Source: a virus (taxonomy: Duplodnaviria; Caudoviricetes). From it: a stretch of DNA of 64,000 nucleotides. The stretch covers positions 10,232-74,231 of the IMG/VR virus record IMGVR_UViG_3300014168_000003. One strand, 5' to 3'. A model generated the notes under the pieces. The model was not told the origin of the DNA, made no database searches, and saw nothing but the letters and a program-made list of their open reading frames with translations. Position 1 is the stretch's first letter. Every line of letters starts with the position of its first letter. Position numbers and translations under genes: made by a program. Positions 9,698 to 56,312 of this stretch are shown one piece after another.

Positions 9698-10483
9698 TCA
9701 GTCCTTCGAAACGATTTGCTTTTTACGACTTTTGCGCCTACTCCTCCACCATGTTGAATACGCCAACGCTGTGATGAGAGCAGCCACAACTCCTAATACT
9801 GCTCCCCAGCCAGGGCCGTTGGTGATAGTATGGTTCAGACTGAAGAAAAGAGAAGAGGGAAATTTTGAGACAACATCAAGATGAAGGGGCCGGGTTGAAA
9901 TATCTGTTCCAGCCGTATCATTCTCTGCAAAAATCTTGAGGGTGAAAAGAAGGTCTACTTTACCCTTACGGAGTGGGGTAACCTCATACCGCCAAGTGGC
10001 CGGATAGCCCTTGGGAGCCCTGTGCTGCCTTTCCTGCTGTCCTGGGGCGGGAGCGATGTCAAACTGCCCTGGAAGGGCTCCTTGAAGGGCTACGAGGTAA
10101 TATGCAGATACGGGAACAAGGGTGGCACCGATGCCAATTTCATTCGAATGAGAAGCGTCTGCCACCAGATCTGGTTCAGCGATAACTACTGTGATGATTC
10201 CGGTCTTCCCCACCGTCCAAACGGAAGTATCGGTCTCCACTTCTAAGGTGTCCATAGCCTCCTTCTCAGGGGGTTTAGGAGGTGGCTTAGGCGTGGCCGC
10301 TACCTTCAGATGTGACTGCTTGACTGCCTTTGCCACAGACTTCGAGATGGCCTGCTCCTCCACCTTAGTCTGGGCTGTCGTTTCGACCGGAGCAGGCAGA
10401 GCTACCCGCACAGGTGGAGGCATCTTCCCACAATTTATCATTAGTAACAATCCCATCATTAGGGTAAAACATATGGGTCGCAT
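9698..10483 (-). CDS. Predicted lipoprotein with C-terminal TM helix; u-spanin-like topology
   Basis: N-terminal hydrophobic signal ending LMINC, Pro-rich linker, beta-rich domain, C-terminal TM WGAVLGVVAALITALAY followed by RSRRKSRKK. Confidence 0.5.
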   Translation of the reverse strand: MRPICFTLMMGLLLMINCGKMPPPVRVALPAPVETTAQTKVEEQAISKSVAKAVKQSHLKVAATPKPPPKPPEKEAMDTLEVETDTSVWTVGKTGIITVVIAEPDLVADASHSNEIGIGATLVPVSAYYLVALQGALPGQFDIAPAPGQQERQHRAPKGYPATWRYEVTPLRKGKVDLLFTLKIFAENDTAGTDISTRPLHLDVVSKFPSSLFFSLNHTITNGPGWGAVLGVVAALITALAYSTWWRSRRKSRKKQIVSKD

Positions 10484-50905: not shown

Positions 50906-50933
50906 AGAAAGCCCCAATTTCTTGGGGCTTTCT
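50906..50933 (-). terminator. Intrinsic terminator after the major capsid gene (potentially bidirectional)
   Basis: agaaagccccaa-tttc-ttggggctttct with T-runs on both strands. Confidence 0.85.
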
Positions 50934-50958
50934 CATTTTTACCAGACTTATCTGGATT

Positions 50959-51897
50959 TTAGGAGCGGGTGATCACGATACGTTCAAGTCCTGATGGGTT
51001 GAAGATCAGGAATCCGAGGATCTCGAACACGCTGAATCCGATCTGACGAAGGTCAGGGCGGTCAGCACTTAGAACGGTCAGGGGGACACGCTCAGGGATG
51101 ACACCAAGGAACTCGGCATCAGCCATGACCCAGACATCACCGTAATTGACTTTTCTGGACTGCAAGATCGTTGCGCCCCAGAGATAGCCCATAATACCGG
51201 TTTTCAGCAAGTGACGCTGAGTCTCACGGTCGATGTTGTCATCAGTCCACTTCAGGATGTCCACATAATCACGAGGATTCATGAAGATGTAGGCGACTGA
51301 AAGGTCGTGACGCTGCACCATACCGAAGGCATCTGCGAAGGGATCAACGGCGAGGCCGTAAGGTCCGGAAGCTGAAGAAACGGTATAGGCAAGGCTCTTG
51401 TTGTAGACGTAATCAGTGTATCCGGTCGAAGAAGTAGCGGTGGTGGCTGCTGCGTCAATGGCGAGGAACATATTGAAAACGTGGTTGTCTTCGGCGGCTC
51501 CGACTTCGGCCTTCGCCAGATTGAGTGCGCGAGAAACGATGTCGAATCTGCGCTCTTTAATCTGGGTGATTGGAATCATGGGGTTAGACACGATTTCAAA
51601 CGTGGGGACCGTGACACGGATAGGATTGGCAACGTTAACAACGTCTCCACCCTGTTCACCGACCACGAACGCCTGCACGAAGCTGCGTCCGGTTTCGTCA
51701 AATTCCTTGTCGTAAATCGGGAGGGCTCCATCGGGAAGTGTTTCTACCATCAATGCTTTACGGGCGATTGACATGTAGTCACGGCGACGACGAAGAGAGG
51801 GGCCTAGAGCGGCGGCTAGCTTCTGGCGACCGGCTGCGGTCTTCAGAATCTGACCAAGCTGGGCGGTCTGTGCTTGGGTGCGGGATAGAATAGTCAT
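50959..51897 (-). CDS. Major capsid protein (HK97 fold)
   Basis: GRQKLAAALGPSLRRRRDY..LPDGALPIYDKE, IKERRFDIV, MNPRDYVDI, GIMGYLWGATILQS; strong RBS, GC3-rich codons, downstream of protease and scaffold. Confidence 0.85.
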   Translation of the reverse strand: MTILSRTQAQTAQLGQILKTAAGRQKLAAALGPSLRRRRDYMSIARKALMVETLPDGALPIYDKEFDETGRSFVQAFVVGEQGGDVVNVANPIRVTVPTFEIVSNPMIPITQIKERRFDIVSRALNLAKAEVGAAEDNHVFNMFLAIDAAATTATSSTGYTDYVYNKSLAYTVSSASGPYGLAVDPFADAFGMVQRHDLSVAYIFMNPRDYVDILKWTDDNIDRETQRHLLKTGIMGYLWGATILQSRKVNYGDVWVMADAEFLGVIPERVPLTVLSADRPDLRQIGFSVFEILGFLIFNPSGLERIVITRS

Positions 51898-51912: not shown

Positions 51913-52720
51913 TTACAAGAACGAAGCAACGCCAAGCCAGGGCTCGGTGGCAGAGATTGGGTGGGTGCAGATACCCACGACGATGGATCCGGCAGTGTTT
52001 GCGGAACCAGGGGTTGCCGTAAACATTCCAGGACCAACCGAACCACCAACGTTAGCAGTGTAGAGACGCTGACCGTTGAGGGGGGTGCTGCCTGTCACCT
52101 GAGAGGCGGGAACCTTGAACTTGGGGAATGCGCGGACCACAGGGGTCTTGCCAGAACCCGAAGGGGTAATGGAAGACGAGAACTGGCCAGCACCCAAGAG
52201 CAAGAAGCCGTAGGGGACTTCTGGAGCGGCTCCGGTGAGGGAGGTTGCGCCGTCCAGAGGGTGAACGATGAGATTGAGAACGCCAGGGGTAGTGGCCCCA
52301 TTGTAAAGAATGCTAACGATGGCTCCAGAATTATAGCCAGCAGCAGTCAATGCAGCATTATCAGTCCCAGGATCACCTGTGAGAGTCAGATTGGGGACGC
52401 AAGTTCCGTCATTCTGACCGTAATATTCGCATTTGTTTCACTTGTGGTTTTCAGACCCACTAGGAAATTTTTCTCTACCACTTCAGTTTTCACTGCCACT
52501 ACCATTAGTGTTTGTGGTCTGGACTATGCCTTCATCTTGTTGAAATTTCTTCAAGTTAGATGGGTTATTATAGTCTCTACACGTTCAAATCTCAGCACCG
52601 TATGATTTGCTTCGCTCGGCGTTGGCATCAGGGTTACCTGGAAGCGTTCACCGAATTTAAACCTTACGAACGTAATGTTTCCACTGCGCCGACCCGATAT
52701 ATATTAAGTTCGAGATACAT
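51913..52720 (-). CDS. Putative capsid decoration protein, spliced: join(52713..52720, 51913..52429), 174 aa
   Basis: AGGAG RBS plus ATGTATCT (exon 1) joins in frame to CGAATATTACGGTCAG... (exon 2), giving MYLEYYGQNDGTCVPNLTLTGDPG...; 8+517=525 nt; directly upstream of the MCP. Confidence 0.8.
52430..52712 (-). ncRNA. Group I self-splicing intron, 283 nt, no internal ORF
   Basis: P AAATTCGGTGAA (52647-52658), Q AACGCCGAGCGAAGC (52609-52623), R GTGTAGAGACTATA (52569-52582), S AAGGCATAGTCC (52521-52532); P4-P8 pairings; U.G at the 5' splice site; terminal G. Confidence 0.92.
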
Positions 52721-52879
52721 TCTCTACTCTCCTATATATGATTTTTCGCTTCTCCATGGATCAGCCGAGGTGGCGAGATCGCTACAAGATGGAGTCGCTT
52801 GTGCATATGAGGAAGGGATATTAGCAAAACAAAGTTACTTATATAACGTGGTTTTCCAGTATTAGATATAGAGGTTAGA

Positions 52880-53542
52880 ATGACAAGACCACTAGGTATT
52901 TACCCATTTCCATATGACACCAGGGCAGGGGTGTACCAAATTGAAAATAAACTGAGTGGAGTCGTATATATTGGCTCTGCCATTAATTTCTATCGAAGAT
53001 GGAGGAGACATCACAATGAACTCACTAGGGGAGTTCACAGCAATCAGCATCTCCAGAGAGCTTGGGATAAGTATGGGCCTGACTCGTTTATCTGGACTGT
53101 GTTGGAAGAAACCAACTGCACCCGTGAAACACTGCTAAGCCGTGAACAGTACTGGATGGATAGAATAAAAAAAGAGGGGGTATTACTTTACAATACCTGC
53201 GTCACTGCTGGTTCCCATCTAGGTGTAAAACGTTCTGAAAAAACCAGGAAATTAATGTCTGAAATTGCTAAAAAACGAGGAGATAATGGTATTAGACGAG
53301 ATGAAGAATGGTGCAGGCAAGTGTCAGAAGCAAATAAGAATAATGTAGAAACTAGATGTGATGCGAAGTTTAGAGAGAAGATGTCAAAACTAAAGATTGG
53401 AAATATGTATTGTAAAGGAAAAAAATGGATCAATAAAAATGGGTGCAGCAAAAGAGTGTCTTTAGAGGAGCTGCCTCTATTCTTGGAGCAGGGTTGGAAG
53501 AAGGGGAGAGCCACTATAGTAATTCTGCCACCTGAGAAGTAA
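52880..53542 (+). mobile_element. Free-standing GIY-YIG homing endonuclease (NUMOD3), the only well-supported plus-strand gene
   Basis: AGVYQIENKLSGVVYIGSAINFYRRWRRH, SNQHLQRAWDKYG, REQYWMD..YN, RSEKTRKLMSE; AT-rich; GAGG RBS and CAGTATTA motif upstream. Confidence 0.9.
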
Positions 53543-53993
53543 AAGTTACCAGAGGGAATTCTCTAATTACCTGTAATTTGGTATCACCCTGATAAAAAAA
53601 GGAGTCGTATCTACTGGAAAAAGAATCCATATCATCAAGATTGAGCCCGGTTACTTCTACCCACTTACATTCTTCTGGATGTTCCACATCATCCATGAGA
53701 ACTTTGTACTTCATATTCATATAACTAGCAGTAGGATTAGAATAATCAGGATTAGATTTTTTGATCTTAAATTGCTCGTAAATCCACATCCAATTTCGAA
53801 CATATTGAGCCGTATAGACTTTATTCTGAAAATCAGGGTAATAGGGGTCTGTAAAATAATAAAATTTAGCACTGGAAGCTCGTTGTTTGAGCGATTCCCA
53901 AATTTTAAGAGTCATCATTCTTTTATCCTTGAGAATACGAATAAGATTCCAGGTTGGGTCTTCATTAGTCCACATAAGAAATCGGCCCCTCAT
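53514..53993 (-). CDS. Hypothetical AT-rich protein; true start probably downstream of 53993
   Basis: Convergent with and overlapping the GIY-YIG 3' end. The track start lies inside a hairpin; ATG 53918 has an AAGGA RBS. Confidence 0.55.
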   Translation of the reverse strand: MRGRFLMWTNEDPTWNLIRILKDKRMMTLKIWESLKQRASSAKFYYFTDPYYPDFQNKVYTAQYVRNWMWIYEQFKIKKSNPDYSNPTASYMNMKYKVLMDDVEHPEECKWVEVTGLNLDDMDSFSSRYDSFFYQGDTKLQVIREFPLVTFTSQVAELL

Positions 53994-54006
53994 GTAAGGG
54001 GCCGAT
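53981..54006 (-). terminator. Probable terminator after the scaffold gene
   Basis: atcggcccct-catgta-aggggccgat followed on the minus strand by TTCTTAT. Confidence 0.7.
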
Positions 54007-54082
54007 ATTCAGAGAGCTATTTGCTTACTGTTTATTTCAATCCACTCATAAGGAAATTCCGTATGAGACTACCACCTTCATT

Positions 54083-55345
54083 TTAGATGTCATCCGTGAA
54101 GACAAGGTTAGCAAGCATTGCCTGCTCTTTGCTCATATCCGTGGCGGTCTTGACATTGCCGAGACTGCGGATTGAAGCGGCCTTAGCGGCTGGCTTGGCA
54201 GGGGCCTTGGAGGCGACTGACTTCTTTGGGGGTTCGAGCTTTGGCTCACCCTCACGCTTGGCACCCGGATCATACTTGTCAACGCCTAGGGTCTTCAGAA
54301 CCTCATAGAGGATCACATCTTCATGATCTTCCTCAGCGTCTGGCACTCCACCTTCATTCAGAAGATCATCAGCCATATCGCCACGCTCGACAATCGGATC
54401 ATCCACACCCTGGACCTTTGCAGCTACCTTCTGATCGGCAAGCAGCACATCGAGGGAAGAGATGTCATAGCGAGAGGCATGATGGAAGAAATCTTCAGGG
54501 GATGCGGTTGCTCCACCCTCTTCAAGCTCATTGGGCTCGGATCCGAAGAATCCTGCGCCACCATCAGCTTCAACGGGAAGACCATCCTCACCAAACTCCT
54601 CACCCTCACCCTCATTTGCCAACGCATCGGTCTTGTCGCCCATGTCGTCTTCGTTGAAGATCTTGGTGAAATCGAGTTCCTCTTCGCCTTCAATTGCTTC
54701 CTCAAGGGAAGTAACATCGGCTTCAAGATTGTCAATCTTTTCCTGGAGTTCCTGCTTCTTTTCGTCAGGAATTGGCTCACCAGCGGGGGCTCCACCTTCA
54801 GGAGGCATCGTCTCATCCATCGGAGGAGTAGTTTCGTCAACTGGAGGAACCGTCTCATCAACTGGAGGAACATCACCTTCTGGGGGAACATCACCCATTG
54901 GGGGCATTTCGTCCTTGGGGGCCTCATCCTTTGGAGCCTCATCTTTCTTGGGCTCTTCAGTCTCATCAGCCTTCTTGTTCAAGTCGGCAGTCTTGGGCTC
55001 ACCCTTCAATTCCTTCTCGACTTCACCCTTCATCTTCTTGAGGAAGGACTCATCTTCGAGGAACTCATTGAGTTCAACTTTGTGTACCTGCTCGAACTTC
55101 TCGGCAATCTTGGTATAATGAGCATTGATGGCCGTCTGACGCAGCATTGCAGTCAGTGCCTTGGTGCTATTCGCCAAGAGCGAGGAAGCGAGTTTGTACT
55201 GGATTTCGTTCGGAGCGGTCGGAAGCAACGACTTGGCAAGCGTCCATGCAGAGGCTACGCGAATCTTAGCTTCCTTATGGGTAGACTGCTTTGTTTCTCG
55301 GATGCTAGCGAGGCGTTCTTTCAGGGACTTACGATCTTCGGCCAT
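54083..55345 (-). CDS. Capsid scaffolding protein
   Basis: Highly acidic, E/D/P-rich with coiled coils, between protease and capsid genes; late-class motif at 55379-55401. Confidence 0.7.
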   Translation of the reverse strand: MAEDRKSLKERLASIRETKQSTHKEAKIRVASAWTLAKSLLPTAPNEIQYKLASSLLANSTKALTAMLRQTAINAHYTKIAEKFEQVHKVELNEFLEDESFLKKMKGEVEKELKGEPKTADLNKKADETEEPKKDEAPKDEAPKDEMPPMGDVPPEGDVPPVDETVPPVDETTPPMDETMPPEGGAPAGEPIPDEKKQELQEKIDNLEADVTSLEEAIEGEEELDFTKIFNEDDMGDKTDALANEGEGEEFGEDGLPVEADGGAGFFGSEPNELEEGGATASPEDFFHHASRYDISSLDVLLADQKVAAKVQGVDDPIVERGDMADDLLNEGGVPDAEEDHEDVILYEVLKTLGVDKYDPGAKREGEPKLEPPKKSVASKAPAKPAAKAASIRSLGNVKTATDMSKEQAMLANLVFTDDI

Positions 55346-55430: not shown

Positions 55431-56312
55431 CTACAGCTTCAACCTACCCAATTCGGCATAGACCGCATCGGGTTTAGGTAGAATGAGTTGGGATGCGGCT
55501 TTACTCGCATACCCAGCGTCTTTTGTATAGGCTGTTTTCGGGCCTTCCCACTCAGTGGAAATGATAGTCCGAAGAGAGGCACCGGGGAAAGCTGGGATTG
55601 CAACCCATGATGCTTCGATAAACTTGACTCCACCATTAGGAAGAGATCTGTGTCCGCAAAGCTCAGCTACACGACGAGGAATACCGTCTTCGTCAGGGAG
55701 GAAAGAGCCCTTGTTATATTGAAGATGGGAACAGTAATTACCATTGTCAGTAACCCGCTGTCCACAGTAAGAGCAGATGACCAAATCAGTCACACAGCCC
55801 ATAGAAAGGTACTTAACCTTCTCACTTCTAATCTTGCTAACAAGATCTTCGTGAGCCAGATCAGTGGCGACGAGAAGATCCACGAAATAGACCCAAACTT
55901 CCCCACTAATCCTGATTTTTCTCAACACAGCATCAAGGATGTGGCCTTTTGCCGCTTTGGAGTTCTGATAATGCTCAAGGAAATTGAACGCACCAACAAA
56001 ACTACGATAACTGAGCTTCAAAACCTCATTTTCCCAGCCATCGTCATTGTTATTGACCAGATAGGAGCACTCTGGAACAATCAGCCAATCTGAAGGCTCT
56101 TTTTCACACATCACGGAGGCCATAATGGTCACGTGAGAGAGCAAATACTTAGAGGTATTGCCAGCAATTTTGGAGAACGAGGCGTTCTTGTGGCCAAACT
56201 TCGCCCCGTGGAGACTATCCCACTGTTGGAGGCTGATTATGGGGTCTGAGATGATGCCAGTGGCTTGCTTTTTCAACATCTTACACCAACATGAACTCGA
56301 AGCAAACTCCAT
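55431..56312 (-). CDS. Prohead (capsid maturation) protease with Zn-finger insert
   Basis: NNNDDGW, FLEHYQ..KGHILDA, YLSMGC..CSYCG..CSH, FIEASWVAIPAFPGA; assemblin/HK97-type H and S motifs. Confidence 0.8.
   Translation of the reverse strand: MEFASSSCWCKMLKKQATGIISDPIISLQQWDSLHGAKFGHKNASFSKIAGNTSKYLLSHVTIMASVMCEKEPSDWLIVPECSYLVNNNDDGWENEVLKLSYRSFVGAFNFLEHYQNSKAAKGHILDAVLRKIRISGEVWVYFVDLLVATDLAHEDLVSKIRSEKVKYLSMGCVTDLVICSYCGQRVTDNGNYCSHLQYNKGSFLPDEDGIPRRVAELCGHRSLPNGGVKFIEASWVAIPAFPGASLRTIISTEWEGPKTAYTKDAGYASKAASQLILPKPDAVYAELGRLKL

Follow-up and report, generated by a model that had tools for sequence, protein, structure and literature searches.

Phage group I introns that rely on an endonuclease encoded outside the intron are exemplified by two systems. 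In cyanophage S-PM2, the intron of psbA and the adjacent free-standing endonuclease F-CphI form a collaborative homing pair (Zeng, Bonocora and Shub 2009; PMC3984707, PMC6083498), and in phage T4 the free-standing MobE promotes trans homing of the nrdB intron, whose own endonuclease, I-TevIII, is defunct (PMC2790892). Introns have also been reported in virion genes, namely the capsid genes of LittleE and Tuc2009 and a tail gene of BAKA, where splicing was shown by reverse transcription polymerase chain reaction and by N-terminal sequencing of the protein (PMC3706429). Here, we describe a locus in a 64,000-nucleotide stretch of viral DNA (the window hereafter; positions 10,232 to 74,231 of the 74-kb IMG/VR record IMGVR_UViG_3300014168_000003, which has a CheckV completeness of 24%), where a 277-nt group I intron devoid of an open reading frame (ORF) almost certainly interrupts a gene for a putative capsid decoration protein, 14 nt from its start, and where a free-standing GIY-YIG homing endonuclease gene lies immediately upstream.

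The window locus and S-PM2 are alike in that intron and endonuclease are present or absent among related phages. The S-PM2 enzyme is Endo VII-like, however, whereas that of the window belongs to the GIY-YIG type and is encoded upstream and transcribed divergently; moreover, the interrupted gene of the window is a head gene with its intron 14 nt from the start, and cutting at the insertion site is here a prediction. The T4 pair offers a parallel to the proposed mobilisation of the window intron by its free-standing neighbour through co-conversion, with a conversion tract over both elements, but MobE is an HNH enzyme and the nrdB intron retains a decayed endonuclease ORF, for which the window intron is too short. 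Introns in head genes are not unprecedented, as the capsid genes of LittleE and Tuc2009 attest (PMC3706429), and in all three virion-gene cases, as in the window, the interrupted gene is a late structural one with high expression; none of the reports concerns a decoration gene or a first exon of 14 nt, and the LittleE intron, unlike that of the window, measures 819 bp, contains an HNH gene and is located far from the start codon.

Searches of phage and plasmid collections for close relatives of this locus yielded nothing beyond a 60-nt match, 84% identical across P7-P9, in the dnaB region of the crAss-like Kolpuevirus 'frurule' (OQ198718.1, 75.4-77.7 kb), which is the sole DNA match in the phage collection and the closest relative by sequence in an isolated phage. 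The two introns share the same J6/7-P7-P8-P9 layout, and the Kolpuevirus GIY endonuclease is 43% identical to that of the window over the catalytic domain, but its gene is contained in the intron, which interrupts a replication gene. In the record itself (75415-77708, our L185:334-2627), dnaB is annotated as two helicase coding sequences with a 'GIY endonuclease' between them and no intron; the shared P7-P8-P9 layout follows the endonuclease gene, and the region looks like an unannotated group I intron. The window locus is composed of known kinds of element, a group I intron and a collaborative-homing pair; what is unusual is the 14-nt first exon, the decoration-gene host and the exceptionally full series of natural intermediates.

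Identity and probable mobility of the intron

For comparison, 170 loci encoding homologues of the protein downstream of the insert were fetched, and inserts at the same site were found in L015, L005, L108 and L016, which are 96, 68, 68 and 56% identical, respectively, to the window intron. The five copies were aligned across 14 helices and 70 pairs (P1, P2, P3-P8, P9 with two inner hairpins, and P9.2), with P7 treated as a pseudoknot. In this alignment 95% of the cells are paired, and compensatory changes, affecting both sides of a pair, occur in 26 of the 70 pairs, as against 9.4 ± 2.2 in shuffled alignments (0 of 500 reach 26) and 2-4 in slid controls. All five copies terminate in G. The P4, P5, P6, P7 and P8 helices and the CAGU-GAAA-ACUG hairpin that an initial annotation of the window had drawn from its sequence are all present and are maintained by compensatory changes in the four diverged relatives, and the 3' end that it had placed at G 52430 is confirmed.

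The same annotation had proposed a search with the Rfam group I model, RF00028, and this gave a divided answer. A match to the full length of the model (positions 1-253) covers 52722..52499 at 32.1 bits, with E-values of 3e-6 in an 801-nt search and 6.5e-8 in the 74-kb record, and the relative L016 scores 37.5 bits. Speaking against the assignment, 32.1 bits is below the Rfam gathering score of 50, a cut-off that serves as an annotation threshold and not as a structural criterion; the default scan of the whole window at gathering scores was empty, the match surfacing only under E-value thresholds. The five-way covariation is better evidence of group I identity than the RF00028 score. A covariance model built from the core reached 174 bits in the window and 133-170 bits in its four source relatives, all of which match by construction, and it revealed no second copy in the window. 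The minimum free energy fold of the element alone was not better than those of shuffles (z -0.58), a measure that is uninformative for a pseudoknotted ribozyme. Covariation and the RF00028 match both support the original proposal that a group I intron interrupts the beginning of the gene adjoining the major capsid gene, and we regard such an intron, with its junction after nt 14 of the coding sequence, as nearly certain.

The history of the insert can be read from a 16-kb contig, L172, which has neither the intron nor the endonuclease gene and is 100% identical to the window for more than 4 kb on each side of a diverged tract. Identity to L172 is 96% at 54098..53949, 64-71% from 53948 to 53577, 77% at 52822..52707 (leader and exon 1), 92.7% at 52428..52279 (the opening 150 nt of exon 2) and 98% in the 150 nt that follow. 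Between the target region of L172 and the intron-bearing exons, all differences are synonymous. This identity profile is the pattern of a mobile cassette copied, along with its flanks, from a diverged donor. The L172 homologue of the neighbouring 159-aa ORF comprises 149 aa, and because its 3' half is just 64-71% identical, the end of this ORF appears to have been rewritten by the cassette.

The upstream, divergent GIY-YIG gene is present in nine of 11 intron-bearing lineages and in seven of 44 intron-less ones (Fisher p 7e-5, a rough value given that the lineages are related). The tally was made with a hidden Markov model; tblastn with the window enzyme missed the diverged GIY-YIG genes of L037 and L135. 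In the endonuclease-only lineages (L018, at L018:1715-2341, and L047, L068, L076, L088, L132 and L161) the gene is likewise divergent and located upstream of the decoration gene, and this state would be the precursor of the state with both intron and endonuclease.

We propose the following sequence of events. P1 would arise by pairing of the guide GGGUCG with the six bases that close exon 1 and the base that opens the intron, the splice site being marked by a U.G pair; the P3-P8 core would fold, guanosine would attack after U 52707, and the freed exon 1 would be joined to exon 2 past the terminal G 52430, yielding a protein that starts MYLELEYYGQNDG. During co-infection, the endonuclease would cut genomes lacking both elements near the conserved 5' end of the gene, repair would copy the endonuclease gene and the intron into the cut genome, and the intron would then shield its carrier by splitting the endonuclease target. 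Taken as a whole, a mobile group I intron in the decoration gene that forms a homing pair with its neighbour is, in our opinion, the likely explanation. Its more specific component, that the ORF-less intron is mobilised with the free-standing endonuclease by collaborative or trans homing at the predicted target, is one that we favour with some reserve. To our knowledge, descriptions of collaborative or trans homing are limited to a few cases.

Certain observations weigh against homing as a pair. The cleavage site on which it depends is a putative one; between the window and L015 the intron is 96% identical but the endonuclease just 68%; and seven intron-less lineages carry the endonuclease gene, while one intron lineage, L140, has no recognisable GIY-YIG gene. 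These distributions and unequal divergences would suit two independent passengers, with the GIY-YIG enzyme homing alone to an intergenic site (intron-less homing), the intron spreading by reverse splicing or plain recombination, and their adjacency being coincidental. The presence of one intron family at two sites, nt 18 and nt 8 (see below), likewise suggests RNA-guided relocation. Against coincidence, however, two intron families that look unrelated are each accompanied by an endonuclease gene; the enzymes include several diverged ones, but the divergent orientation is the same every time, and in the window both elements are contained within one diverged tract. Independent travel strikes us as unlikely, and we retain the homing pair. 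The locus offers a natural series that includes near-isogenic partners, with 100% identical flanks and with or without the cassette, which would let the origin of mobile introns and the protection conferred by the intron against the neighbouring endonuclease be tested directly.

The initial annotation had instead suggested that the intron could act as a late-gene checkpoint, by making synthesis of the decoration protein, and possibly that of the capsid protein, depend on splicing; on this view the intron would be a regulatory device, and one could suppose that it was retained for that function. The geometry of the locus lends this some appeal. The start codon and the ribosome-binding site are within 15-25 nt of the 5' splice site, and as the 5' strand of P1 (52712..52706) occupies positions 9-15 nt into the coding sequence, inside the stretch covered by an initiating ribosome, initiation and P1 probably exclude each other on the precursor, judging from known ribosome footprints; splicing and initiation should thus compete. 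Furthermore, unspliced contigs occur in RNA libraries, and an unspliced RNA would give only a short peptide, as had been foreseen, of 18 residues ended by the TAA at 52666..52664. This early stop is not conserved, however, the L005-type copy reading through 55 codons; most lineages possess no intron; a separate ribosome-binding site region serves the capsid gene, 15 nt past the decoration gene stop; and selfish elements are typically recognised by a presence/absence polymorphism combined with a conversion tract, as seen here. Indeed, since a phage with identical flanks of more than 4 kb does without the intron and encodes the identical protein, the intron is dispensable and behaves as a mobile element. 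The checkpoint finds no support in these data, and we consider it improbable. The 14-nt first exon, which brings the 5' splice site so close to the start codon that an initiating ribosome can reach it, nonetheless makes this a convenient locus for the study of competition between splicing and translation in a highly expressed late gene.

Inserts in the first 18 nucleotides of the gene

Three distant homologues carry other inserts, of 213-258 nt: those of L037 (L037:2303-2515) and L135 (L135:2268-2506) follow nt 18, and that of L140 (L140:2245-2502) follows nt 8. They are homologous to one another (72% column identity), follow a U and terminate in G, have J6/7-P7 and P7' motifs in common with the window intron, and display by eye compensatory changes in P3, P7, P8 and P9. 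Their exons, when joined in silico, align unbroken to intron-less homologues. Neither RF00028 nor our own core covariance model detected these three inserts, which are probably a second group I family present at two sites. In L140, the place of the GIY-YIG gene is taken by a divergent ORF of 322 aa (L140:1159-2127, minus strand), which has no clear family and a weak zinc-finger match, and which may be another kind of nuclease.

It is tempting to extend the homing pair to these cases, and we do so tentatively: the first 18 nt of the gene may be a hot spot on which GIY-YIG endonucleases and two ORF-less intron families have repeatedly converged (at nt 8, 14 and 18), the intron serving mainly as an immunity element against the neighbouring endonuclease. 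On this proposal, one wetland phage population would hold genomes with neither element, with the endonuclease only, and with endonuclease and intron together, so covering all steps of the proposed route to mobile introns, and splicing would have to precede translation because the splice site is inside the initiation footprint.

Splice sites, splicing and the host protein

A Shine-Dalgarno sequence, AGGAG, at 52733..52729 (minus strand) is located 8 nt 5' of the ATG at 52720, both elements as initially annotated. The conserved protein is encoded in a frame that extends from 52428 to a stop codon at 51915..51913 (minus strand); it opens without a start codon, and its first start in the ORF list is the TTG at 52350. 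The ORF lists yield just 145 aa for the decoration gene and miss its N-terminus, a deficit that had already been recognised. Splicing after nt 14 restores ...CTC GAA CT/C GAA TAT TAC... (the slash marking the junction), and the resulting coding sequence of 531 nt specifies 176 aa, starting M-Y-L-E-L-E-Y-Y (MYLELEYYGQNDG...).

The nt-14 boundary is drawn from several comparisons. In approximately 120 intron-less homologues, the start codon precedes the invariant YYGQND by six codons (in most, and likewise in the window gene once joined after nt 14) or five, and never by four. In contigs L001-L004, of DNA or RNA origin and representing either spliced RNA or an intron-less allele, the same 14 nt run straight into exon 2. 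These contigs belong to another haplotype (leader 88.5% and exon 2 93.8% identical to the window), and because they read the 6 nt in dispute joined to exon 2, these nucleotides are exon. The same joined sequence is also found on a 4.7-kb contig of a more distant lineage (L114/L171), and nt 7-14 of exon 1 are invariant in all five intron-bearing lineages. Furthermore, protein P0132, encoded without interruption on L172-L176, equals the product predicted from the 14-nt exon and exon 2 letter for letter. L172-L176 include ENA scaffolds labelled METAG, and the intron-less allele therefore exists as DNA.

The initial annotation had placed the 5' site after nt 8, with AUGUAUCU as an 8-nt exon, AUGUAUCU/CGAAUAUUAC as the junction, a P1 of CU/CGA with UCGGG, a 283-nt intron and a 174-aa product starting MYLEYYGQ..., which puts the boundary 6 nt from where we find it. 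An internal repeat in the exon (CUCGAA CU) is what allows this alternative helix to be drawn, and it preserves the reading frame in either register; the helix holds in four of the five variants, and a different intron does sit after nt 8 in the distant relative L140. Yet the expected intron-less homologues starting M-x-L-E-Y-x-G-Q-N-D, with four codons before YYGQND, do not occur among the ~120; the disputed 6 nt are identical to exon sequence in L001-L004; the spliced contigs of the sister intron (see below) use the nt-14 site; and the L108 guide, CCAGG, breaks two of the five proposed pairs but keeps the nt-14 U.G. With homologue N-termini, intron-less alleles and sister spliced transcripts all giving ...GAACU/exon 2, the P1, P10 and junction originally drawn are in the wrong register, and an nt-8 junction is very improbable. 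The P1 of the nt-14 site has a bulge at A 52709 and a pair between U 52707 and G 52694; this U.G pair is invariant in the five variants, and the U.G neighbouring it becomes U-A in L108. The weaker side of this assignment is that the exact P1 register, with its bulged A, is the most plausible drawing rather than one fixed by covariation, which settles neither the register nor P10; a P10 could not be established.

The best view of splicing is provided by the sister intron (L005 type, same site, 68% identical), which is represented by short contigs (24 of 24 below 2 kb). The eight sister-type contigs that were fetched begin 40-88 nt 5' of the ATG and end at or just past the capsid gene, near the terminator hairpin. 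In four of the sister type (L178-L181), the sequence flanking the junction matches L005 at 100% on either side and the 281-nt intron is missing at ...GAACU/UGAG..., and the long contigs of this phage type (up to 140 kb) all keep the intron. We read the short contigs as spliced two-gene mRNAs. One of them, the public Logan contig L179, opens at positions 1-23 with the remains of an Illumina adapter joined to the leader, a minor artefact of assembly indicating a fragment end.

Other contigs are less favourable to splicing. The sample type of these transcript-shaped contigs is itself deduced from their shape. Contigs from four metatranscriptome studies cover the window locus, and three of them, from three RNA libraries, run through the intron: X1 (1771 nt, identical to the window) extends from 52736 to the end of the capsid gene and crosses both splice sites; X2 (two differences) covers exon 1 and the intron, crosses the 5' site and reaches 52428 at the 3' splice site; and X3 (no differences) passes from exon 1 into the intron, crossing the 5' site only, and stops at 52514. 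Unspliced RNA or carried-over phage DNA is therefore present, and among the RNA-library contigs no spliced one with the window's own leader haplotype was found. A fourth contig, X4, which skips 52752..52429, was considered as spliced RNA and rejected in favour of a natural intron-less allele: its 48 unaligned letters consist of 33 nt of the L172-type leader and 15 nt of the coding start of that allele, and its mismatch pattern fits the L172 type. The absence of X4 cover over the intron and the lower depth of X2 over the intron than over exon 2 were not used, contig depth being unsuited to ranking. Of the spliced junctions that the initial annotation had asked for in RNA, the contigs that we read as mRNAs show one for the sister intron, joined at nt 14, and those of the window intron were all unspliced. 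Since the structure of the window copy is intact and covaries, and given the behaviour of the sister intron, splicing of the intron in vivo is very likely.

That there is no splicing at all, the gene starting at TTG 52350 (145 aa) behind some 370 nt of structured leader or decayed intron remnant, agrees with the 144/145-aa form returned by gene callers on many contigs and with a window haplotype seen only as unspliced contigs, but it is scarcely credible given that the 26 codons 52428..52351 are in frame and conserved, that Y7, Y8, G9, N11, D12, G13, T14, P17, T22-P25 and D28 are invariant in 14 diverse homologues, that compensatory change maintains every ribozyme helix, and that the sister intron is removed from RNA-shaped contigs.

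The host protein has no Pfam or PHROG match. An AlphaFold model built from 14 homologues has a mean pLDDT of 72, and Foldseek returned only weak matches (best E 0.02), nearly all of them to capsid accessory proteins. With VIA-align, the top 19 PDB entries (Z 6.0-8.7, although unrelated folds may also attain a Z of ~8) consist entirely of decoration, cement or head-fibre-base proteins from phage capsids, including those of XM1, BB1, Pam3, FCWL1, HFTV1, phiCD508, phi29 (gp8.5), T1 and TW1. The gene is located between the scaffold/protease genes and the capsid gene, and is co-transcribed with the latter, as seen in the two-gene RNA-library contigs. The label of decoration or cement protein, already given in the initial annotation, is moderately supported by fold and gene position and is reasonable, albeit not proven.

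The database entries for the intron-bearing relatives (P0002-P0008, P0122 and P0129-P0133) are gene calls cut to 144-145 aa from the TTG, a systematic annotation error caused by the intron. Gene callers shorten this widespread head protein in the same way on every intron-bearing contig (up to 313 kb); the truncated calls lose its most conserved motif, YYGQNDG, and the correct product is 176 aa long.

Intron anatomy and gene layout

The features of the locus are collected in Table 1. In the P9 domain, compensatory changes occur in three helices, while P9 itself never varies. Compact IC3-type introns of bacterial tRNA genes, such as those of Azoarcus and Anabaena, reside in tRNA anticodon loops. 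The window intron resembles them in being small, in having no P7.1/P7.2 between P3' and P8, and in bearing GAAA loops on P2 and on a P9 hairpin, but it is located in an mRNA. A pairing of the ribosome-binding site with UUUCCUA in the 3' region of the intron was considered and dropped, as it is not conserved in L005 or L108.

Table 1. Features of the intron-bearing locus in window coordinates.
Feature	Position	Strand	Basis or remarks
Diverged tract relative to L172	52250..54000		~1.8 kb, limits approximate; endonuclease gene, leader, exon 1, intron, start of exon 2
GIY-YIG homing endonuclease gene, free-standing	52880..53542	+	220 aa; Pfam PF01541, E 2e-11; phrog_314 homing endonuclease, E 1.3e-25
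Exon 1	52707..52720	-	ATG + 11 nt = 14 nt; last base is splice-site U 52707
Group I intron, ORF-less	52430..52706	-	277 nt, terminal G 52430; boundaries from comparison of relatives
P1	52690..52712	-	exon nt 9-14 and intron nt 1 (52712..52706) with guide GGGUCG (52695..52690)
P2 hairpin, GAAA tetraloop	52671..52688	-	compensatory changes in 6 of 7 pairs
TAA in frame with exon 1	52664..52666	-	directly 5' of P3; sequence reading
Catalytic core P3-P8	52522..52663	-	covariation in every helix
P3	52663..52660 with 52566..52563	-	
P4	52654..52649 with 52621..52616	-	
P5	52645..52625	-	
P6	52609..52586	-	
P7	52575..52570 with 52527..52522	-	
P8	52562..52533	-	
P9 domain	52444..52518	-	P9 52518..52477 with two internal hairpins, one GAAA-capped; P9.2 52460..52444
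Exon 2, putative capsid decoration/cement protein gene	51913..52429	-	196 homologues
Major capsid protein gene	50959..51897	-	phrog_2522 major head protein, E 2.8e-42
Palindromic hairpin 3' of capsid gene, perfect, 12 bp	50906..50933		probable terminator

The genes are arranged in the order protease (55431..56312), acidic 420-aa protein, 159-aa ORF, decoration gene and capsid gene, and relatives of the locus occur on contigs of up to several hundred kb. The endonuclease gene is divergent from the intron-bearing gene, with its start 160 nt from the decoration ATG, and its 3' end overlaps the convergent 159-aa ORF (53514-53993, minus strand) by 29 nt.

The major capsid gene begins 15 nt 3' of the decoration gene, and both genes are spanned by RNA-library contigs. 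Those of the window type stop at ~50932-50972, near the hairpin that is the probable terminator of a two-gene mRNA, and their opposite ends cluster 63-81 nt 5' of the ATG (~52783-52801), which suggests an mRNA of ~1.6 kb after splicing; no sigma-70-like promoter was found around the latter ends. An equivalent hairpin follows the capsid gene stop in L005; contig L178 extends through this hairpin and terminates 92 nt after the stop. Finally, L005-type genomes possess an ORF that the window does not have, situated right after the capsid gene (L005:4589-5839); it encodes 416 aa with a faint NUMOD3 match and may be a further homing endonuclease insertion in the head module.

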